NCBI GenBank assembly: GCA_040753215.1
Contig: JBFMEZ010000025.1
Span: 5,528 to 69,527 of the forward strand
Source: Candidatus Micrarchaeota archaeon
GTDB lineage: Archaea > Micrarchaeota > Micrarchaeia > Anstonellales > Bilamarchaeaceae
DNA: 64,000 nt
Reading direction: 5' to 3'
Shown here: positions 31,744-42,500 of the stretch, one piece after another
Position numbering within the stretch: the stretch's first letter is position 1
Layout: each line of letters opens with the position of its first letter
Notes under the pieces: model-generated
What the model saw: only the letters and a program-made list of their open reading frames with translations
Databases searched by the model: none
Told to the model about the DNA's origin: nothing
Program-made: the position numbers and the translations under genes

Positions 31744-33132
31744 TTACACATTATAGTAGGCCTCGAACTCGTAGGCGGAGGTGCGGAGGTTGTGCTCCTT
31801 CTGCTCGTTCATCTTCTGCTCAAGGTAGTCCTCCAGAAGCTCCGGGGAGAGCACGCCCTTTAGGAAGGCGTTGTCGGTCTCGAATTCGCTCACCGCCTCC
31901 AGCAGGCTGGACGGGAGATAGCCCACTCCCGCGTCCTTCCTCTCCTTCGCGCCCATGGAGGAGATGTCCTTGTCCACAGGGTCTCCGGGGTCCTTCTTTT
32001 TCTTTATGCCGTCAAGGCCCGCGGCTACTACAACGGAGTAGGCAAGGTAGGGATTGACGGACGGGTCCGCGCCCATGAATGCGACGCACTTGCCGAGCTT
32101 GTCGTTCTTCCTCTCGAACGGGATGCGGACCAGCGCCCCGTTGCTCCTCTTGCCCCATGCGATGTAGAGCGGGTCGCCGAGCAGCTTCTTGTAAGAGTTG
32201 GTCGTTGGCGCGGTGAAAAGCGAGAGGGCGGATGCGTGCTCGAGGATTCCGCCTGCGAAATAGCGGCCGTTCTGGCTGAGCTGCGCGTACGTGTCCGCGG
32301 GGTCGTAGAAGACGTTCTCGTCGCCCTTCCAGAAGGACTGCGAGACCCTGAGGGAGCTGCCCCTCTCGGTGTGTATCGGCAGGGGCATGAATGTGGATGT
32401 GCTGTTCGCTATGAAGGCGAGGTTGCGGACCACGTATTTTGCGGTGACCATCGCATCTGCGGCGGTGCGCAGCGGGTTCGGCTTGAGCGCCAGGGACTGC
32501 TGGGAGCTGGGAGCCCTGCCGTGCACGTGGCCCTGCACGAAGAAGCGGAAGTTGTCCTCAAGCACCTCGGACACCTGCGTGCGCGCGGAGTAGAGGGAAT
32601 CGAACGGCTGGCCTATGAACGCGCCGTTCTTCGCGTTCCAGAGCGGGGAGGGGTTCCACGGCGCCTCCCTGGAATCTATAAGGTAGTTGGGGCCCCTGCC
32701 GGGGGTCATCTTGTCCACGCTCACCGCGTCGAATACGTAGAATTCCATCTCTGTGGCTGCGGATACGTCGGTCAGCCCCATCGCCCTCGCATTCACCATA
32801 ACGCGCTCGGCGACGTAGCGGGGGTCCTTGAGGAAGCGCTCCATCTTCGGGGCGACTGCGACGTCGCAGAGGAAGCGGACTGTGTTCGCCTCCCACGGCA
32901 CCCTGCCGAAGGTGTCCGGGTCTGGCCTCAGGACGAGCTCGCCGTCCTCGCTGAAGCCGAAGAGCTCCTGCAGGTTGCCGCACTGCACGCCGGCTGCGAA
33001 GGAATCCACGCTGAAATCCCTCGCGTGCACGGTCGCGCGGTTCAGCCTTCCGGTCGTGTCCACGAACTGGAGGTCTATCCACTTTGTGTTGTTCACGCTT
33101 ATGAATTCCAGTGCCTCTTCAGGAGTCGGCAT
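31744..33132 (-). CDS. glnA: glutamine synthetase (type I-alpha-like)
   Basis: Beta-grasp N-domain plus the catalytic domain, with NPLRTAADAMV, GALVRIPFERKN and NPYLAYSVVVAAGLDG blocks. The start at MPTPEEALEF is preferred over the longer ORF-track start. Confidence 0.85.
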   Translation of the reverse strand: MPTPEEALEFISVNNTKWIDLQFVDTTGRLNRATVHARDFSVDSFAAGVQCGNLQELFGFSEDGELVLRPDPDTFGRVPWEANTVRFLCDVAVAPKMERFLKDPRYVAERVMVNARAMGLTDVSAATEMEFYVFDAVSVDKMTPGRGPNYLIDSREAPWNPSPLWNAKNGAFIGQPFDSLYSARTQVSEVLEDNFRFFVQGHVHGRAPSSQQSLALKPNPLRTAADAMVTAKYVVRNLAFIANSTSTFMPLPIHTERGSSLRVSQSFWKGDENVFYDPADTYAQLSQNGRYFAGGILEHASALSLFTAPTTNSYKKLLGDPLYIAWGKRSNGALVRIPFERKNDKLGKCVAFMGADPSVNPYLAYSVVVAAGLDGIKKKKDPGDPVDKDISSMGAKERKDAGVGYLPSSLLEAVSEFETDNAFLKGVLSPELLEDYLEQKMNEQKEHNLRTSAYEFEAYYNV

Positions 33133-33218
33133 ACATACACCCGCGGAGATACCGAAGAATACATAAATAAAGATTTCTATGGCAAATAGCCTAAGCGTAT
33201 AGCCCTTCAATCATAAAT

Positions 33219-33274
33219 GGGGGGTTATGATTACGCTAAAGAGAAGGGGGAACTCCCCCTTCTTCTTGCTGCCA
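33219..33274 (+). repeat. conserved ~58-nt element, copy 2, ending in GCCA, which forms the first four nt of the downstream tRNA
   Basis: GGGGGGTTATGATTACGCTAAAGAGAAGGGGGAACTCCCCCTTCTTCTTGCTGCCA. CTAAAGAGAA lies at -35 to -26 relative to the tRNA 5' end, like a TATA box. The hairpin is AAGGGGG-AAC-TCCCCCTT. Confidence 0.6.
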
Positions 33275-33414
33275 CGGTAGCTCAGCTGGGAGAGCACTCG
33301 AGGTCTTCTGAGATTAATTTCATTTGACCGGTGAAGCTGAAGTTCCGTTCCCGCAATGGGGCGGATATTCTCCCGGAAACCGAGGGGTCGCTGGTTCAAA
33401 TCCGGCCCGTGGCA
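33271..33414 (+). tRNA. intron-containing tRNA (144 nt precursor, intron about 70 nt); isotype not resolved
   Basis: 5' GCCACGG-TA-GCTCAGCTGGGAGAGC (acceptor and D arm) and 3' ...CCGAG-GGGTC-GCTGGTTCAAATCCGGC-CCGTGGC-A (anticodon 3' strand, variable loop, T arm, acceptor) are canonical. About 70 nt in between cannot be folded into an anticodon loop without a non-canonical splice. Confidence 0.7.
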
Positions 33415-33418
33415 ATTT

Positions 33419-34099
33419 TCATTTTATATAGATTCCTTTTTCTCTCGGGAAATCCACCCTGCGCACAAGGTTCAGCCCTGGCCTGCGCTCCGAATCGTAG
33501 TGCGCATATGCGAGGAGGGCGGCGGCGAGGAATTCCTTCGTGTAGCCGCCGTATGCCATTTTCTTGACCAGCCCTGCGAAGTCGAGGGAGAACGACTTCC
33601 CGCGGAATTCGAATGAGATTTCGCCCTTTTCGTAATCTATGCCGGCGTTGGACGCGCCCAGCTCCTCCAGGCATCTTTCGGCATAGCTGCTCATGTAGGG
33701 GAAGCTGAGGAGGATGTATGTCCCGAACAGCCCCTTCCTGACCGGGCCGGCGAAGGATTTTGGCAGCCATTTCCAGGGCGGCTCCTCCGCCTCTTCCTCG
33801 TTTTTCATTATGTCCCCGAAATGGAGTATCGTAGCAGGGCCGGATATCTTCCTCCCGGAGAACCTGACCATCTCCTCGAGCGGCTTCTTCCAGCCCTTTT
33901 CGCCTTTCTTTACCGGAGGCATCACGCCGATGTAATATGCGCCCTGCTCTATCTCGGCGAAAACCGGGGCCCTCTTCTTCAGGGAGAAATTTATTATGTC
34001 GATCCACGCGCCGCGGGCGGCCGAGGGGCCGGCGGCCGCATAGTTGCGCGAAAGCGCGCCGCGGGTTATCGATTCAGAAACGAAATACCCACTGTCCAT
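33419..34099 (-). CDS. hypothetical protein (227 aa)
   Basis: Start MDSGYFVSE; the upstream extension of the tracked ORF overlaps the tRNA. No family recognised. Confidence 0.4.
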   Translation of the reverse strand: MDSGYFVSESITRGALSRNYAAAGPSAARGAWIDIINFSLKKRAPVFAEIEQGAYYIGVMPPVKKGEKGWKKPLEEMVRFSGRKISGPATILHFGDIMKNEEEAEEPPWKWLPKSFAGPVRKGLFGTYILLSFPYMSSYAERCLEELGASNAGIDYEKGEISFEFRGKSFSLDFAGLVKKMAYGGYTKEFLAAALLAYAHYDSERRPGLNLVRRVDFPREKGIYIK

Positions 34100-34223: not shown

Positions 34224-37200
34224 CTAGTGATGGAGCTTCCTTGCGCCCCTCGGGACGGGCGGAGGGCCCTGCACAAGCCCCCTGAATCTCTTAGGGAGCG
34301 GCAGGCCGGGACTCGGCGCCGGCCTCGGCGCATTCATGGAAGCGGCAATCCGCCCCCTAAGTTCGGGCCCGAAGTATCCTGCGTAGTATGCGGGCAGCTC
34401 CCTCCTGTCCCTCGCCATCATGCGCTCGTCTGCCAGCCTCTTGTCCACCGCATCCCTCATGAGCTCGCCTATTTCCGCAGCCGTGAACATGCCGGATGCT
34501 ATGAGCTGCGACGCCGCAGACGCCTCGCCGCGGTACACCACTGCCTTTACCGCCGCCCATTTTAGCAGCAGCTTCTGCCATTCTGCGGGCGGGCTGCCGG
34601 AGAACGCCGCGGACATCGGCACACCGACGTCCTTTCCGCACTGCACCGCGCATAGAAGCGCGGAGAATGGCGAATCCAGCTCTGCCGCGAAATTCAGCGC
34701 CTCGTATTTCTCCTCAAGGTCGCCCTGCCCCCCCCGGAGGGCCATTGGCTCGAGCAGCTTTTCGCCTATTGCCGGGCTGCCTGCTGCCACCCCGAGCACT
34801 TCGGAAATGACCTCGGGGAGCATCCTGGAATCGCCAATTATGGCTGCGAAATGCTCTGCCGCCGGCCCGCCTGCGGCCGCCATGAGCTGCGCCGCGGTTT
34901 TTCTTGAGGCGATTTCAAGGTCGAGCGGGAGAAGGTCCTGCGGATGAACCCTCAGGCGCACCATGCGCTCCAGCTCGTCAAGGGGCACGTACGGGCCAGC
35001 CGCCTTCAGCGCGTCTTCCGCGCACGTGCTGACCATCCCGTTCCTGTGCCTGAGCAGCCCTGCGAGGAGCCTCGTGTTCTCCCGGAACTCCGGGAGCACG
35101 CTGAGCTCCTTCGGCGTTTCCCTTCCGCTCTGCAGCACCCTGGTAAACAGCTCCGCGGCCTGCACCGCCTTGTTCTCGTCCCCGGAGCGCAGCATCGCGC
35201 CTATCTGCTCCTGTGCGCCCCTTCCCATCAGCCTCAGGACGTTGTACACCCTTGCGGCCAGCTTTTCCCCGCCTTCCGTGCTGAGGACGGCGGCGACGCT
35301 GTCGAGGAGGTTTATGTTCCTCATCTCGGAAAGGACCATCGCGACAACGCCCTCGGAAAGCTCCTTCATGCCTATCGCATTCAGCAGGCATTCCCTGGCC
35401 TTCTTTTCTGTCGCCTCGCTCTGCCTGTGGCCTTTCTTCTTTCTGGCGTAGCCGGCGAGCTCGCCTATGGTCACGAGCGCGTTCCTGCGGTATTCCGGCG
35501 GGTAGCGCGAAAAATCGACGGAAAGGACGATGTCCGAAAGCTGGCCAACCGCGAGGTCGCCGTTCCTCACCAGGATTGTGCGTGCCTCCCTGAGGCGGTC
35601 CGCATTGTCAGCGGCCTCCACATCCCCGAAGAGGTGCGCCTTCACGCACGCCTTTATCAGGTCCGCGCCGCAGTCCTTCTGCTCGCGGAAAATCTTGAAA
35701 GCCACGAGCCCGAGGTCTGAAAGCTCGCCCCTGTCGAAGGCTGCGCGCATCAGGCAGGGGCGGACCTCCCCCTTTCCGTAGGCAGCCGAGAGGGCTTCCT
35801 CCACCCTGCGGCCGGTCCTCACGGCCTCGTCCCCGAGGCTCTTCCCGGAAACGAGCCCGGAGAGGAGCCTGTATGAAGCGTCGGAATTTATGCGTGCGAG
35901 CAATACCGCGATTGCCGCGGCTTCCTTCGGGGCGATTCCCTCCTTCTCCCTGTCAGCCAGGAACCGCCCGGCATGCTTCGTTGCCCCTTCCGCGAAAACC
36001 GGCAGGGATGCGAAATCCTGCATAGCGGCAACATCTGCGGCATCCATGTCCTTTATGAGGGGAAGCATGTGGCCTGCGAGGGCGGCGCACCTGCCGCTCT
36101 CCAGCAGCCCGCCGAAGGCCGATGCGAGGCCGGAAAGCGCGAGCGCCTCCTTCGGGGTGAGTGCCCCTTCCCGGGATTTCCTTTCCGCGTATTCGAGGAG
36201 GATTGCTTCCCCGTGGGCCGCGTCCAGCTTGATTGCGAGGTCCTGCAGCTTCTCGAGCTGGGCAGGGTTCATTCTAACTGCCTCCGGGAGCGCATGCTTC
36301 AGGAACTCCACGCCCTCCTTTGCGCCTATGTCTTCAACGACTATGGAAAGGAGGTGGGCACCGTCTGCGCCGAGGCCCTCTGCGGCGGCTTCCGCATACC
36401 TCAGTATTACGGGGACCGCGCCCTTTCCTATCTTCCTGGCGAAGCGCGCGGCTGCGACAAGCTGCTCGTCGTCCATTCCCTTCAGTACCGGCAGGGAGCT
36501 GGCGAGGATGCGGTTTGCGTCATCATCCGCAAAGCCGGCTTCCATCGCAAGGGAAATCATGAAGCGGCATTCTTCCGCGGTCAGCGTGCCTTTTGAGGAT
36601 TCCGCCTCCGCGTAAGAGGCGAGGTGCGCGACAGGATTGCTGCCCTTTTCCGCCATCTCCATCACCAGCTGGCTGATGAGCGGGTCGTGCACGCGGCCGA
36701 GCGTCCTGCTTTCGGAAAGCGCGACTGCGAGCATTCCTGCGGGTTCCATTGCGGCGAGGAGGGATGCCACGCTTTCCCTGAGCTCCGGCTGCTGCTGGTA
36801 GGCGTTGAGGAGCAGCGGGACCGAGGTTCCTGCGGCCTGCCCGCCAACGAGCGCCGCGGCGCTCTTCCTTGCCGCGAAGGGGGCGTTGTAATCGCCCAGG
36901 ACTGCGCACACGCGGCCGAAATCGGCTTCGGCCTCCATGATTTCCATCGCCCTGGAGTTCCCGGAAGCCGCCTCCAGCAGCCTTGAATATGCGTAGTGCA
37001 CGTCGGCATCATCGCCCTTGGCCGAGAGGAACAGCTCGGCGGCCCTTTCAACCGCAACCTCAGGGCTGCCGGGGTCCAGAAGCGTATCCTCAAGGTGGCG
37101 CAGGGCATCGAAGCTGCCCTCGTGCAGCGCCTGCATTATGGTGTGGGAGGCCTCGGTGTCGCCCTCCGCAATCGCGGAGGCGAGGAGCGGGTATGCGTCC

Positions 37201-40200
37201 CTGTGCCCAGGGGCAAGCTCCGCAAGAAGGCCCGCGGCTCCGCGCCTGACATTAACATCTTCGTTGTGAGCCAGCAGCTCCCCGAGGAGGGGCCCTGCAC
37301 GGCTGAAATCCATCGCAAGGAAGTACCTCCGGGTGTCCAGGCCTTTTCCGCCCAAAAGTATGAGCCGGCTGGCCGCACCCTCTGCGACCTGCTGGGAATC
37401 GTGGGTGAGCATCGGGGCGAGCACATCGCACGCCTCTTCGGTGCCCATCTGTCCCAGCACGGATATCGTTCTGAGGTTTTCCCCGTCCTCCCTGCCTGCG
37501 TATATGGACGGCAGGAGGCGGAGGCCGCCGGAGTGTATGCTTGAAACCGCGAGCTTCCTGACTTCGGCGTTCCCGCCGGCTGTTGCGGAACAGAGCACGG
37601 GGTAAACATCTTCAGGGTAGCGCACCGCGAATTCCGAGAGCAGGGTGGCGGCTGAGACGCCGGCTGCTTCGCTGAGCTCGCTGCCATCGCTGTCCAGCAC
37701 CGCTTCCTTCAGGAGGGCGAGCGAGCGGTTGAAATCCAGGTTCCTGAAATATTTGTGGGTGTCAGTGCCATCTGCTCCGTGCGCGGCGAGCAGCACACGG
37801 GCCGCCTCTGCGGAAACTGCGGGCTCCGTGTCGAGCAGCACGGGCGAGAGCGCGGCAAGCGCCTCCTGCGTCCCTATCTCCCTCAGGACCGAGACCGCGT
37901 TTAGCTTGCCCTCCCTTGTGCATGAGCCGAATTCCTCGGACACGGCCCGTATCACTGCGCCGTCCCCCCGGGATATGAGCATGGAGCATACGCCCATCGC
38001 GACATCCGGGTAGTCCAGGGCTCCGGCGAGGCCGTTGAGCGCCGCCGGGTCGTTTATGTCCGCCAGCCTCTGGAGGGCTGCGAGGCGGGCATCGGAGTCC
38101 TTCGCCCTGTGGAGCAACTTCACGAGCCTTGCTACCTCCCTGCCGGATTCCCTGGAAGATGCGACCAGCTCCGGAGCGGGAGGCGAGTAAACTGTAGGCC
38201 CCGCGTTTTCTGGCCCGGATTTTCCCACAAGCCCCTGCGGAGGCGGGTATAGGGATGTCGGCCTCGCTTCCAGAGGTATTCCATCTGCATGGGCCTCTGC
38301 TGTTTGCGGCACCGGAGCTGGCGGCTCTGGTTCGGCCGCAGGAACATGCGAGGTTGCGCCCGGCGTTTCCGGAGCCGGCTGGCCTTCAGCGGCAGGTGCA
38401 GCAGGTTCCTCGCCCAAAACATCCTCTTCCCTCACCGGAGCAGGCGGCTGGGACGGGGTTTCTGGCAAACCAAACCCCCGCCCTCCCGGTCCCACTTCGG
38501 CTCTGGAGGTTTGGTTTGGTCTCCCGTTTCCTGTTTCCGGTTTCGCGTCCGCTGTTGGCTGCGGAGCGCCTGCTGCCTGCGCTTCTGCCTTTTCTCCTGC
38601 AAGCGCTGCGGCTATCTCTTCCGGTGTGGGGGCACGTCTCTGAAACGTCCTCCATTTATCCGGAGGCAGCAGTTTTCCATCGGGGCCGAGCAGCGCGGGG
38701 CCCACATCCGGCGCAGGTGCGGGGCCTTTCATTGTCGGGTGCGCGGAAGGAACATCAGCAACCGGCTGGGGAGTGGAAACTGTAGAGTGGGAACCGGGAA
38801 CCGGAAGCGGGGAACTGGTTGCTGGCTGCGCTGCGGGCATCCCTACTGCGGTCCCTCCCCTCGCAGCGTCTGCCATCTCTTGTGAACCTGAAACGGGCGG
38901 CTTTCCTGCCGTAAGGTCAATCACCCGCTGGAACTCGCCGCTTTCGGAAGCATCCGGCGCATGTGGCACAATTTCCAAGTGCAGCTTCTTTGCACCCGGT
39001 TTCCCGCTTTCTGTTTCGGAACTGGAAACCGGAGACAGGAAACCGGAAACTGCGCTGCCACCTGCGGGCGGGACTGCGTGACCGGCAACCGTTCTGCCTC
39101 TCAGCGCCTCTGCCATTGCGAGGCTCTCGGGGGCAGCGGAGGAAACCGGCCCGGAACCGGAAACTGGAAGCCGGGAACCGTGAACCGGCTCTGTTGGTGC
39201 AGCTGCGGTGGCGGCTCTTGGCGCTTCCGCTGGGGGAGTCGGCACTTCGGGAGTTTCCGGCAACCGGGAACCGGAAACTGGAAGCTGGGGTGCCGGGTAA
39301 GGAGGAGGAAGCGGCTTAAGGAGGCCTGAATCGCCTTCTGAGCCGGCTGCGATTGTGGCAGCGAGGCCTATGGGCGCGGCGATTTCGACCGCATGCACGC
39401 GCGGGCCGGAGCCGTTTGCAGGAGGGGCTGCTGGAACCGTGGGCCTTGCTTCACTCTCCTTTGCGGCCTCAAGCTCGCGCTCGACAACCTTAAGGAATTC
39501 CAGCACTGCCGGCCCGGAGGGAAGCCCTATCCTTTCGGAATTTATCTTGTCCAATGCCGCGTGCATCAGTTCCGGCGCAATGGAACCGTTGCCGCAGAGA
39601 AGGTAGATGTGGAGCTTTGCAGGGTAGGGGTGGCCCGCATCTATGCACAGCCCGGAGAAGAATGCCGTCTCCTCATCAATGCCGCTGAACTGCTTCCTCT
39701 CGGAAAGGAGGATTGCGAGTGCCTTCTTTCCCACATCCTCGGGAATGAAGCCCCTCTGCACCCTGTTGTCTATCTGCCTTTTCGTCCTTATTTCGGCCCT
39801 GCAGACCGTGAAGAGCTTGTCCGCCTCTTCGGGGGTTTTCACCGACGCCTCGCCTGCGCGAACACGCCTAAGGGCTTCCTCCGCGGCCATGGCAGCGTAG
39901 TTGTCGGCCGGCGGCTTCCATTCCTTTCCGACTGCGCGCATGAGTGCGGCGAGCCGCTCGGGCATCGCGAGAACTGCGTTCCAGCCCTCGAGTTCTGCCT
40001 CCTTTTCGGCAAGGGCTGCGGGAGCGGGTTCCTTCTTTCTCATGCCCCCAACAGACTTGCCGAGGGTTTCAACAAAACCTTCCGCGGTCCTGCGCAGCTT
40101 CTCGCCCTGGAAAATATTGAGCAGGCCGGAGCGGCCCACGCGCACTCCGCCCATGGTTCTCGGGCCTTCCGCGAGCATAGTATAAGCGTTATCTTCGGGC

Positions 40201-42500
40201 TCTGCGCCGAACGCTGCCTTCCACGCCTTCTGCAGGAGCTGGGCGAGCTCCGGGTCCGCCTGCTCTATTTCGAGGATGTGGAGCCTCCTGGCCGCCTCTC
40301 CCATTTTGATTACATAGGCAAGTGCAGCGGCCTTGACCAGGTCTTCGGCGGCCTTATCCGTTTCCGGTTTCCCGCTTCCAGTTTCCGGCAACGGAGAACC
40401 GGGAACTGGCAACTGCTGGGCGCCTTCTGCCGCCTCTTCCGTGCTGCCTGAATCGTACCATCCGAGATATCTCTCGTCCGCAACGAGCCGCCGCACCTGC
40501 TCCTCCCTCGGCAATCTGAGGAGTTCCGGCGGGACTATTGCGCCTGCCTTCTGCCTTATTGCCTGCTCCAGCCCGGCCGCAAGCGAATCCATGGAATCGT
40601 TCAGCCCTCCAACGGCATCCGGCCCCAGGATTTCGGCGTTTGCAAGGAAAACCCTGCAGGAATCCCTCACAAATGAGCGCACATCAGACTGGAATTCCTT
40701 TTCTTCCTTAAGGGAGGCGAGGACCTGCGGGCGGGTGAGCAGGATGCCTGAAGCGAGGTATCTCCTCTCTGCCTCAAATGCAACGGAATAGGAATAGCCG
40801 CCCTCTTCTGCAATCATCCATATGTATTCGCCGCTGCTGCCCTGCAGCTTAAAGCGTGCCTGGAGAAGAATGTCGCCGGCGGAATCCAGGTCGGACGGGA
40901 TGACGAAATGGGTCCCGGAGAGCCGGATTGCGGCATCGGCTTCCTCATCCGTATAGCCGGAACCCTCTGCGGCCTTACTTATCAGCTTTGCGGCATCCTC
41001 TTCTTTCAGGAGATACTCCTTTGCCGCTGCCAGGTATCCTGAGGCCGCTTCCTCATCCTGGAGAATAGTGCCCTTTGCCTCTGCAGCATTCTGGGCCGCT
41101 ATCCAGGCTTTCATCGGGAATCCGCCTTTATCACCGGCTTTTCCTACAAGGACATGGTTCTGGATTTTCTGCTCTTCGGTGAGGACTGGCGGCCTGGGCA
41201 TCACGGTTGTGGATTCGGATTCGTGGATGAGCATCTGCCTTGTTTCCTCAAGGACATGGCGGGAATATTCATCGGGATGCATGCTGGGGAGCTTTACCGG
41301 GACCGCGTCGCCTGAGCCGATGTCCGCCTTTCCTGAAAGGCGCTCGGCTGCGCGCATGTAAACCCTCCTCGGGAATCCGCCGGATTTCCCGGAACCGTAT
41401 ACGTAGGATGATGGGTTGCTGAGGAAGGAGTGCTCTGCCCTCATCTCTGCAAGCACCTCTTCGGAGACTATTCTCTTTCCTGAAGAGGAGTGCCTTCCGG
41501 CTACTGTGGTGATGACCGGGGTGCGGAGCGGGCCGGCGGGAACTCCCCTCCCGCCGAGCATCCTCACATATTCGTATCCGTGCCTCGCCTGCATTAGGAG
41601 GTCGAGCGCTTCGGATTCCAGCGCCTCGCGCCTTTCCTTGCGGCCGTGCGTGACGTGCATCCCGAGGGCCTTTGCAGGCGGCTTCGGGAACCAGTTGTAT
41701 TTTGCGCAGAGGGCGAGGGCTGAGGCGGCTTCCCTTGCGGTGAAGCCGTTCTTTTTCGCGAGCCTGCGGATGAATCTTTCAGTTGCATTCGGGATTCCGG
41801 CTTCCGGTGAAACAACCACTTTGGGGGGAGCGGGCTGCGGCGCGGGCGGCTGGGGCGGAATGGCAGGGGCAGTAACCGGCCGGGTTGCCATGGACGATAC
41901 AGAAGCTGGAGATGCGGACGAGACTGGGGTGGAAGCAGGAACTGGCAGCCGGGAACTGGAAACTGGAGACCGCGGGGCTGCCATGCCTTTTGGATGCGGC
42001 TGCGCTGCTTTGCTTAGGAGGCCGAGGGCTCCAGCCTCATCCGCCGGAATGCTGCCGGAGCAGAAGGAGATGCCCCTTGCCCTTAGGATGTCATCTTCCG
42101 TGAAACGGGTGTCCCTGCCGGCTGCCTTCCTGAGGAGGCGCATGAGCTTTTTTTCGGAGCCCGCCCATTCCTCTGCGCGCACGAGCAGGTCGCGGGCGCT
42201 GTTTCCTGTGAGCCTTGTGCCGGGCGGAAGGTCGAGGCACAGGTCCTTTGCAAGCCCGATTACGGCTGCTGTGCAAGGGTACCCTTTATTGCCTGTGTAT
42301 TCCACCACGTACCAGTTTGTGGCGATGTCGAGCAGGTTGCGCGCAGAGGATGCATCAAATGCCGAGCCTTCTGGCAGGCGCTTTACTAAGCCCTTGGCTG
42401 CCGCAAGCGCATCGTTGGTATATCCATCGTACTCTGCGACATTTTCAAGCAATGCAAGGTTCCTTTCGGTTCCAGCTGGGAGTGCAGTAGTGTCTCTCAT
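34224..42500 (-). CDS. giant protein (2758 aa): N-terminal globular regions, ~450-aa Pro/Ala-rich low-complexity linker, ~1500-aa array of PBS-lyase/HEAT-like repeats
   Basis: 8.3-kb open frame in 60% GC DNA, which cannot be chance. The C-terminal half is repeated helical units (e.g. DSDARLAALQRLADINDPAALNGLAGALDYPD, NEDVNVRRGAAGLLAELAPGH). The linker contains in-frame GGAAACC-family repeats giving PVSGS and PETGN peptides. Confidence 0.7.
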   Translation of the reverse strand: MRDTTALPAGTERNLALLENVAEYDGYTNDALAAAKGLVKRLPEGSAFDASSARNLLDIATNWYVVEYTGNKGYPCTAAVIGLAKDLCLDLPPGTRLTGNSARDLLVRAEEWAGSEKKLMRLLRKAAGRDTRFTEDDILRARGISFCSGSIPADEAGALGLLSKAAQPHPKGMAAPRSPVSSSRLPVPASTPVSSASPASVSSMATRPVTAPAIPPQPPAPQPAPPKVVVSPEAGIPNATERFIRRLAKKNGFTAREAASALALCAKYNWFPKPPAKALGMHVTHGRKERREALESEALDLLMQARHGYEYVRMLGGRGVPAGPLRTPVITTVAGRHSSSGKRIVSEEVLAEMRAEHSFLSNPSSYVYGSGKSGGFPRRVYMRAAERLSGKADIGSGDAVPVKLPSMHPDEYSRHVLEETRQMLIHESESTTVMPRPPVLTEEQKIQNHVLVGKAGDKGGFPMKAWIAAQNAAEAKGTILQDEEAASGYLAAAKEYLLKEEDAAKLISKAAEGSGYTDEEADAAIRLSGTHFVIPSDLDSAGDILLQARFKLQGSSGEYIWMIAEEGGYSYSVAFEAERRYLASGILLTRPQVLASLKEEKEFQSDVRSFVRDSCRVFLANAEILGPDAVGGLNDSMDSLAAGLEQAIRQKAGAIVPPELLRLPREEQVRRLVADERYLGWYDSGSTEEAAEGAQQLPVPGSPLPETGSGKPETDKAAEDLVKAAALAYVIKMGEAARRLHILEIEQADPELAQLLQKAWKAAFGAEPEDNAYTMLAEGPRTMGGVRVGRSGLLNIFQGEKLRRTAEGFVETLGKSVGGMRKKEPAPAALAEKEAELEGWNAVLAMPERLAALMRAVGKEWKPPADNYAAMAAEEALRRVRAGEASVKTPEEADKLFTVCRAEIRTKRQIDNRVQRGFIPEDVGKKALAILLSERKQFSGIDEETAFFSGLCIDAGHPYPAKLHIYLLCGNGSIAPELMHAALDKINSERIGLPSGPAVLEFLKVVERELEAAKESEARPTVPAAPPANGSGPRVHAVEIAAPIGLAATIAAGSEGDSGLLKPLPPPYPAPQLPVSGSRLPETPEVPTPPAEAPRAATAAAPTEPVHGSRLPVSGSGPVSSAAPESLAMAEALRGRTVAGHAVPPAGGSAVSGFLSPVSSSETESGKPGAKKLHLEIVPHAPDASESGEFQRVIDLTAGKPPVSGSQEMADAARGGTAVGMPAAQPATSSPLPVPGSHSTVSTPQPVADVPSAHPTMKGPAPAPDVGPALLGPDGKLLPPDKWRTFQRRAPTPEEIAAALAGEKAEAQAAGAPQPTADAKPETGNGRPNQTSRAEVGPGGRGFGLPETPSQPPAPVREEDVLGEEPAAPAAEGQPAPETPGATSHVPAAEPEPPAPVPQTAEAHADGIPLEARPTSLYPPPQGLVGKSGPENAGPTVYSPPAPELVASSRESGREVARLVKLLHRAKDSDARLAALQRLADINDPAALNGLAGALDYPDVAMGVCSMLISRGDGAVIRAVSEEFGSCTREGKLNAVSVLREIGTQEALAALSPVLLDTEPAVSAEAARVLLAAHGADGTDTHKYFRNLDFNRSLALLKEAVLDSDGSELSEAAGVSAATLLSEFAVRYPEDVYPVLCSATAGGNAEVRKLAVSSIHSGGLRLLPSIYAGREDGENLRTISVLGQMGTEEACDVLAPMLTHDSQQVAEGAASRLILLGGKGLDTRRYFLAMDFSRAGPLLGELLAHNEDVNVRRGAAGLLAELAPGHRDAYPLLASAIAEGDTEASHTIMQALHEGSFDALRHLEDTLLDPGSPEVAVERAAELFLSAKGDDADVHYAYSRLLEAASGNSRAMEIMEAEADFGRVCAVLGDYNAPFAARKSAAALVGGQAAGTSVPLLLNAYQQQPELRESVASLLAAMEPAGMLAVALSESRTLGRVHDPLISQLVMEMAEKGSNPVAHLASYAEAESSKGTLTAEECRFMISLAMEAGFADDDANRILASSLPVLKGMDDEQLVAAARFARKIGKGAVPVILRYAEAAAEGLGADGAHLLSIVVEDIGAKEGVEFLKHALPEAVRMNPAQLEKLQDLAIKLDAAHGEAILLEYAERKSREGALTPKEALALSGLASAFGGLLESGRCAALAGHMLPLIKDMDAADVAAMQDFASLPVFAEGATKHAGRFLADREKEGIAPKEAAAIAVLLARINSDASYRLLSGLVSGKSLGDEAVRTGRRVEEALSAAYGKGEVRPCLMRAAFDRGELSDLGLVAFKIFREQKDCGADLIKACVKAHLFGDVEAADNADRLREARTILVRNGDLAVGQLSDIVLSVDFSRYPPEYRRNALVTIGELAGYARKKKGHRQSEATEKKARECLLNAIGMKELSEGVVAMVLSEMRNINLLDSVAAVLSTEGGEKLAARVYNVLRLMGRGAQEQIGAMLRSGDENKAVQAAELFTRVLQSGRETPKELSVLPEFRENTRLLAGLLRHRNGMVSTCAEDALKAAGPYVPLDELERMVRLRVHPQDLLPLDLEIASRKTAAQLMAAAGGPAAEHFAAIIGDSRMLPEVISEVLGVAAGSPAIGEKLLEPMALRGGQGDLEEKYEALNFAAELDSPFSALLCAVQCGKDVGVPMSAAFSGSPPAEWQKLLLKWAAVKAVVYRGEASAASQLIASGMFTAAEIGELMRDAVDKRLADERMMARDRRELPAYYAGYFGPELRGRIAASMNAPRPAPSPGLPLPKRFRGLVQGPPPVPRGARKLHH

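Follow-up and report, generated by a model that had tools for sequence, protein, structure and literature searches.

Results

A tRNA gene with surplus sequence in its anticodon arm lies beside GlnA

The window, by which we mean the whole 64,000-nucleotide stretch of DNA analysed here, carries on its forward strand a 144-nt gene (33271-33414) that matches the Rfam tRNA model at 44.1 bits (gathering score 29, E 4e-6), a modest score that belongs to the unspliced form of the gene. Four of its parts can be read without ambiguity: the acceptor stem (GCCACGG/CCGUGGC), the D arm (GCUC-AGCUGGGA-GAGC), the variable loop (GGGUC) and the T arm (GCUGG-UUCAAAU-CCGGC). CCA is absent from the gene, and a T-rich tract, ATTTTCATTTT, follows exon 3. 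The distance from A26 to the variable loop is 88 nt, against an expected 17, and the surplus of 71 nt falls between G30 and A38. A preliminary description of the region had read the same four arms and had counted about 70 extra nucleotides in a 144-nt precursor, as we do. Its start at 33219 has to be corrected: that position is 52 nt too far upstream of the true 5' end, and what lies at 33219-33270, a leader or an intergenic stretch, includes a terminator-like hairpin of its own (Table 1).

Table 1. Parts of the tRNA gene and associated elements, in window coordinates
Feature	Position	Strand	Basis
Exon 1: tRNA 1-30 (acceptor 5' strand, D arm, A26, C27-G30)	33271-33300	+	Rfam alignment, relatives
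Intron 1: 35 nt, position 30/31, strict hBHBh'	33301-33335	+	BHB scan, covariation
Exon 2: 7-nt micro-exon GCUGAAG (G31-G37), anticodon GAA at 33339-33341	33336-33342	+	Five syntenic relatives, valid arm
Intron 2: 36 nt, canonical position 37/38, relaxed hBH/BHL	33343-33378	+	3'-site pairing, hairpin covariation, L005 homologue
Exon 3: tRNA 38-73 (A38, CCGAG, GGGUC, T arm, acceptor 3' strand, A73)	33379-33414	+	Rfam
UUCUCCCGG tract within intron 2, complementary to the D arm	33368-33376	+	Recurrence in relatives, shuffles
Symmetrical GC hairpin, T-rich tails on both strands, outside the tRNA	33241-33267		Upstream of the tRNA, in the insertion

The divergent neighbour (31744-33132, reverse strand) encodes the glutamine synthetase GlnA. 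The protein is 100% identical to one from a Candidatus Micrarchaeota metagenome-assembled genome (MAG), and further matches in a homology search, at 83-50% identity, are also from Micrarchaeota. By homology, this adjacent gene places the window in Candidatus Micrarchaeota. Two genes away from the tRNA lies a giant open-reading frame (ORF) of 2758 aa (34224-42500, reverse strand). Large ORFs stand at the matching position in three related loci (2777, 2015 and 1613 aa in L001, L004 and L005), and those of L001 and L005 have weak or faint Pfam matches to HEAT repeats.

Upstream of the tRNA, an insertion of about 80 nt (33191-33270), absent from the closest relatives, separates the 5' end from a conserved, AT-rich, TATA-like box (ATAAATAAAG, about 33163-33172). 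Loci L002, L137 and L145 have no insertion, and there the TATA-like box is about 25-35 nt upstream of the tRNA; in L001 there is a related insertion of about 55 nt. Since the insertion in the window contains a symmetrical hairpin that is terminator-like on both strands, the tRNA may be transcribed with a long 5' leader or from a new promoter. The surroundings of the gene differ among relatives. In L003 and L004 the tRNA-Phe gene has the opposite orientation with respect to GlnA and is found some 22-27 nt downstream of a LAGLIDADG_3 ORF of 202 aa (1620-2228 and 1659-2267, respectively); the same arrangement occurs in L052, L127, L146 and L152, and the window has no such ORF. The final codons of this ORF (ATTTTAAAATAG) resemble the TATA box of the tRNA.

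No single excision gives a valid anticodon arm

We enumerated all 18 single excisions that would leave 17 nt between A26 and the variable loop, and all of them fail to combine a 5-bp stem with U33 and a purine at position 37. The canonical cut at 37/38, made alone, produces CUCGA-GGUCUUA-CCGAG. The same loop, GGUCUUA, had appeared in the preliminary description, which had likewise concluded that the anticodon arm could not be assigned in this way.

In default mode ARAGORN misses the gene. Run with -i, as the preliminary description had proposed for a bulge-helix-bulge (BHB) search, it reports an implausible tRNA-Asn(AUU), in which a 62-nt intron sits at 33/34 and the variable arm is long. We give this single-intron reading practically no chance of being correct. 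It leaves an A·C mismatch in the anticodon stem and an A34 that is unmodified, requires a long variable arm, which is foreign to class I tRNAs, and has junctions with no BHB; nor is any single excision legal. The proposed loop, AUAUUCU, moreover falls in variable sequence: it reads AACAUCU, AGCAUCU or AUUAUCU in relatives and is absent from L005. At lower stringency ARAGORN returned a reverse-strand tRNA-Ala(GGC) with a 190-nt intron, which we rejected as implausible.

Removal of two introns, at 30/31 and at 37/38, gives a 73-nt tRNA-Phe(GAA) with the anticodon stem CUCGG/CCGAG and the loop CUGAAGA. ARAGORN recognises the spliced 73-mer as tRNA-Phe(gaa) with a perfect cloverleaf and five Watson-Crick pairs in the anticodon stem. 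The spliced molecule has the layout of an archaeal tRNA-Phe(GAA), with a 7-bp acceptor stem, a 4-bp D stem, a 5-bp anticodon stem, a 5-nt variable loop and a 5-bp T stem; the anticodon loop is 7 nt long with U33 and a purine at 37, and the T loop is UUCAAAU. The Phe identity elements for archaeal and eukaryal PheRS are G20, the anticodon G34 A35 A36 and the discriminator A73. All are present here, with G20 at 33290 and A73 at 33414. A non-canonical intron position and a pair of introns had both been among the explanations first offered for this gene, and both apply.

Intron 1 has a strict bulge-helix-bulge motif that covaries across archaea

A BHB-geometry scan, which looks on each strand of the motif for an outer helix, a 4-bp helix, a 3-nt bulge and an inner helix, found a strict 3-4-3 motif at 30/31. 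Its 5' strand is ag-CACU-CG↓A-gguc and its 3' strand gacc-GGUG-AA↓G-cu, where the arrow marks the cut. The strict hBHBh' form is defined by two 3-nt bulges, a 4-bp helix between them, flanking helices of at least 2 bp and a cut after the second bulge nucleotide, and intron 1 conforms to it throughout. The outer helix is A23-U33 and G24-C32, the central helix pairs 33295-33298 with 33330-33333, the bulges are CG↓A (33299-33301) and AA↓G (33334-33336), and the inner helix pairs 33302-33305 with 33326-33329. Cutting after the second bulge nucleotide on each side excises intron 1 and joins G30 to the G at 33336, which reads CUCG+G followed by CUGAAG.

The unconstrained minimum free energy (MFE) fold of the precursor contains neither splicing motif and, with an ensemble frequency of 0.005, tells little. 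When the intron 1 motif (BHB-1) is enforced, the best fold has -55.2 kcal/mol against -58.0 for the MFE structure. The BHB-1 conformer is thus predicted to be accessible, within 2.8 kcal/mol of the minimum.

To compare this motif across archaea, GTDB species genomes were scanned for a D arm followed by 20-50 nt and AAGCUGAAG, which gave at least 120 matches; at least 64 loci passed an independent test for the acceptor and T arms. The tRNA-Phe genes among the matches listed come from Nitrososphaerales, Bathyarchaeia, Desulfurococcales, Micrarchaeota, Aenigmatarchaeota and Iainarchaeum, with a few bacterial chance matches. In at least 37 of the at least 64 loci among the matches listed, the 30/31 intron is the only one, and GCUGAAGA and the 3' stem strand follow it directly. 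The 30/31 introns of tRNA-Phe(GAA) in these groups share the AA↓G 3' bulge (L006-L125, among the matches listed). The micro-exon is present in the pattern-found loci because the search patterns contain it.

When the junctions of 47 distinct sequences are aligned without gaps, the 30/31 BHB is 96.6% paired, against 71.5% in column shuffles and 27-38% in slid registers. Seven of its ten pairs covary in these 47 distinct tRNA-Phe genes, which represent several archaeal phyla among the matches listed. The central helix is 100% paired, with covariation at three of four pairs (A26-U to G26-C; U28·G, C28-G and A28-U), and all four pairs of the intron helix covary. The alignment has a covariation score of 0.691 and shuffled alignments one of 0.196, and 0 of 500 shuffles scored as high. 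The search pattern had fixed the AA bulge and the micro-exon and had left the helices free, so this covariation is independent evidence for the motif.

Some loci seem to have yet another intron farther downstream, in the T loop (L075, L095, L129, L141, L144 and L150) or in the variable/T region (L028, L079 and L086); one such case reads GGTTCAAA and continues into non-tRNA sequence. If real, these would mean three introns in one tRNA-Phe gene.

Exons and junctions are conserved in syntenic relatives

We also fetched the GlnA loci of relatives with GlnA identities of 83, 79, 78 and 66%, and the tRNA gene stands beside GlnA in each. The five syntenic relatives were located through GlnA and not through the tRNA sequence, so the invariance of AAGCUGAAG, which is by construction in pattern-found loci where the scan patterns fixed it, is not so in these five. 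Their exons are conserved except for a compensatory change in the acceptor stem (A4-U69 to G4-C69) and small differences of length and base in the D loop. All keep the junctions (CUCG↓A, GGUGAA↓GCUGAAG↓ and ↓ACCGAG). The micro-exon GCUGAAG is identical in the five, and both introns that flank it vary. The inner helix of intron 1 is maintained by compensatory variants, reading GGUC/GACC, GGCC/GGCC, AGC/GCU or AGCUUUUCG/CGGAAAGCU.

A gene that the default search misses and that scores modestly against Rfam in its unspliced form might be a decaying pseudogene, with insertion debris as the extra sequence. The conservation of its exons over GlnA identities from 100% down to 66%, including the paired A4-U69 to G4-C69 change, makes this highly improbable, as do intron helices kept by compensatory changes, two intact splice motifs and a perfect spliced cloverleaf.

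A side observation concerns copy number. The MAG AlinenSediments_bin-2471 holds two near-identical two-intron tRNA-Phe genes (L052 and L060), one adjoining LAGLIDADG and the other GlnA. The pair could be a true duplication, a mixture of strains or a binning artefact.

Intron 2 has a relaxed motif at the canonical position

Intron 2 consists of a hairpin (33344-33365), a single-stranded UAUUCUC, the tetramer CCGG (33373-33376) and the 3' bulge AA↓A (33377-33379), and its excision joins G37 to A38-CCGAG. Within the tetramer, C104-G106 pair with G34-C32 (C32-G, U33·G and G34-C in the window), and A35 is mismatched with C103. Intron 2 therefore falls outside the strict hBHBh' definition: the central helix has 3 bp and the A35·C mismatch, 7-8 unpaired nucleotides (UAUUCUC) lie between the hairpin and CCGG, opposite the 5' site, and no helix stands directly opposite that site. 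The relaxed hBH/BHL form has one intact half, made of an outer helix, a 3-nt bulge and a central helix, and places the other site in a helix-closed loop. Intron 2 has this form, with the CCGAG stem, the AA↓A bulge and C32-G34 paired with G106-C104 on one side and, on the other, a 5' site (AG↓U) in an internal loop closed by the stable hairpin.

Comparison with relatives, for which a metagenome scan added 29 Micrarchaeota-type loci, points to the same pairing. In 48 distinct 37/38 introns of tRNA-Phe, the tetramer before the last two intron bases can pair with C32 in 48, with U33 in 46, with G34 in 46 and with A35 in 17. Shifted registers at the 3' site lose the pairing with C32-G34. The hairpin, which the preliminary description had picked out as GC-rich, is 94.7% paired in 12 distinct close relatives, with double changes at two pairs. 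RNAalifold prefers to pair the intron CCGG with U28-G31; we disfavour this alternative, given that a G-to-A change in L146 breaks that pair and keeps the pair with U33. The BHB scan also returned a 24-nt candidate for a third intron nested in intron 2, which we rejected: the 12-nt remainder would have no BHB, and the relatives are unsupportive.

The 37/38 intron of L005 has a length of just 14 nt (GGAAUCUCUCAGCA) and forms a perfect BHB (CUGA / AG↓G ... UCAG / CA↓A) that conforms to the strict definition. The BHB cut rule, applied to it, gives a 7-nt anticodon loop identical to that of the window. In this comparison of homologous introns, the cleavage rule checks out as internally consistent.

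Two introns could formally be cut at other places. Junctions at 31/32 and 39/40 would produce the arm CUCGA-CUGAAGU-UCGAG, which is legal in having 5 bp, U33 and G37. We regard this shifted assignment as very unlikely. In none of the BHBs found do its junctions follow the second nucleotide of a 3-nt bulge; it would put A31·G39 in L005 and G38 in L001; and in the at least 37 single-intron relatives G31 comes directly after the AA bulge and pairs with C39.

The preliminary description had further suggested that an RNA might be embedded in the intron, on the model of the box C/D guide in the tRNA-Trp intron of Haloferax and other Euryarchaeota (PMC4090602), and had drawn attention to CUGA elements. 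Two CUGA tetramers do occur within 78 nt, at 33308 and 33337. The second belongs to the real anticodon loop, as C32-A35, and the first forms the 5' strand of intron 1's inner hairpin, where relatives have AUGA, CUGG or UCGA. Box C/D sRNAs are marked by a C box (RUGAUGA) and a D box (CUGA) close to their ends and by C'/D' boxes in between that can fold into k-turns. A C box was sought in the precursor, which has no UGAUGA within one mismatch, and each intron, at 35-36 nt, is shorter than a C/D sRNA. An Rfam search of 33150-33500 at E<=10 returned no credible C/D family, only chance-level matches (MIR529, STnc290, sR19 and sR39, E about 9) that either miss the introns or lie on the opposite strand. 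The embedded guide RNA is thus extremely improbable, and the CUGA elements keep their place in the gene as part of a hairpin and of the anticodon loop.

A tract in intron 2 is complementary to the D arm

The two-intron arrangement has one further regularity. The UUCUCCCGG tract of intron 2 can pair over 9 bp, 2 of them G·U, with CUGGGAGAG in the D loop and D stem (33286-33294, tRNA positions 16-24, C16-G24). In a fold constrained to contain BHB-1, the helix between UUCUCCCGG and the D arm stacks on the 2-bp outer helix. Most two-intron relatives (L001-L005, L020-L154) have a tract of this kind, at the 5' end, in the middle or at the 3' end of intron 2. Variants of this pyrimidine tract include CUCUCAG, CUCUCAU, UUCUCA and CUCCCA, and the D-arm target is YUGGGAGAG, from the D loop and the 3' strand of the D stem.

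The longest helix between intron 2 and the D arm averages 7.4 bp, against 6.0 bp when the D arm is reversed and 5.4 bp when the introns are shuffled. Helices abutting G22 amount to 167 bp in 33 intron families, against 111.5 +/- 7.7 bp in shuffles and 122 +/- 8 bp in shuffles with the last 6 nt fixed, with 0 of 1000 shuffles as high; because the 33 families are related, the significance of this enrichment is overstated.

Discussion

We conclude that the locus is very probably a functional tRNA-Phe(GAA) gene of Candidatus Micrarchaeota with two protein-spliced BHB introns. Comparison of the related genes shows that both motifs are present and conserved and that, under the standard cleavage rule, they would yield a legal tRNA-Phe. 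The preliminary description had held that a clean BHB with a standard anticodon loop would make this an ordinary intron-containing tRNA. That is largely the outcome: intron 1 has a clean BHB and the loop, CUGAAGA, is standard. The gene is neither structurally anomalous nor a new kind of element; it is a multi-intron archaeal tRNA of the ordinary sort.

Processing may proceed as follows. Intron 1, together with the 3' strand of the D stem, A26-U28 and C32/U33, would fold into the strict 3-4-3 BHB. The 3' half of the intron 2 motif would be canonical, made of the anticodon stem, the bulge AA↓A and a helix of 3 bp formed by C32-G34 with GCC of the intron. By the BHB rule, an archaeal splicing endonuclease, presumably of a broad-specificity type (epsilon2 or (alpha-beta)2), would cut after the second nucleotide of each bulge, and an RtcB-type ligase would presumably join the exons. 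BHB-1 uses C32 and U33 in G24-C32 and A23-U33, and the motif of intron 2 (BHB-2) uses C32-G34; the two share C32/U33 and therefore could not coexist, so that removal would have to be sequential. Intron 1 would probably leave first: BHB-2 has as its outer helix the anticodon stem with G31-C39, and this stem is complete only once intron 1 is gone. Sequential removal would leave the 7-nt micro-exon attached to a larger exon at all times. CCA would be added to the 73-nt tRNA post-transcriptionally.

The complementarity between intron 2 and the D arm may help to order these two steps. Bound to the D arm, the tract would stack on the outer helix of BHB-1 and keep CCGG off C32-G34; once intron 1 is gone, it would switch to the anticodon loop and build the 37/38 BHB. 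As for the other intron, one ancient origin, in place of repeated gains, could account for the 30/31 introns in tRNA-Phe of Micrarchaeota, Aenigmatarchaeota, Iainarchaeota, Bathyarchaeia, Nitrososphaerales and Desulfurococcales. The joint proposition, that the pyrimidine tract is a conformational switch ordering two splicing events around the micro-exon and that the 30/31 intron of tRNA-Phe is ancient, is speculative, and we consider it doubtful that both parts hold.

Archaeal tRNAs with up to three protein-spliced introns, some at non-canonical positions, have been described (Marck and Grosjean in 2003; Sugahara et al. in 2007 and 2008; as cited in PMC4033280 and PMC8450103), and tRNAscan-SE 2.0 handles closely spaced introns that need successive removal (PMC8450103). 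As these citing papers present them, the multi-intron tRNAs of Thermoproteales and Thaumarchaeota resemble the present gene in having a BHB for each junction, sequential removal and a conformer that borrows exon nucleotides for its BHB; unlike those genes, this one belongs to a DPANN archaeon. The closest parallel in phylum is ARMAN-2 (Candidatus Micrarchaeum acidiphilum), in which strict and relaxed (hBH/BHL) motifs occur together in one genome, as they do here, and tRNA-Pro(GGG) has two introns six nucleotides apart, at 53/54 and 59/60 (Fujishima et al., 2011, PMC3239211; Hirata et al., 2012, PMC3488258; PMC12397907). These ARMAN-2 examples concern the T loop, or position 37/38 in other tRNAs, whereas the introns described here flank the anticodon. 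The epsilon2 splicing endonuclease of ARMAN-2 has been shown to cut both motif types (PMC3239211), and by analogy within the phylum we would expect a broad-specificity enzyme of this type to act on the present gene. The tRNA-Trp intron of Haloferax volcanii, which holds a box C/D guide RNA according to the legend of Fig. 5C in PMC4090602, shares with this gene an intron-containing archaeal pre-tRNA with CUGA-like tetramers; unlike it, the present gene has no C box and no conserved D box, and its introns are too short.

Multi-intron tRNAs and an endonuclease for relaxed motifs are thus already published for the lineage, and this gene adds to a well-described kind. In the multi-intron literature we found no naming of the 30/31 and 37/38 pair with a 7-nt micro-exon in tRNA-Phe, within a search for which "30/31" is not a usable term.

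For annotation, the value of the result is that default tRNA finders miss an essential gene or call it Asn(AUU), and anyone who assumes a single intron will see an anomaly; with correct splicing, a gene emerges that may be the tRNA-Phe of this genome. The gene also adds a well-supported DPANN case in which a 7-nt micro-exon lies between a strict and a relaxed BHB, and the comparison shows the 30/31 intron of tRNA-Phe across several archaeal phyla. The D-arm tract raises a testable idea of how the order of splicing may be enforced.
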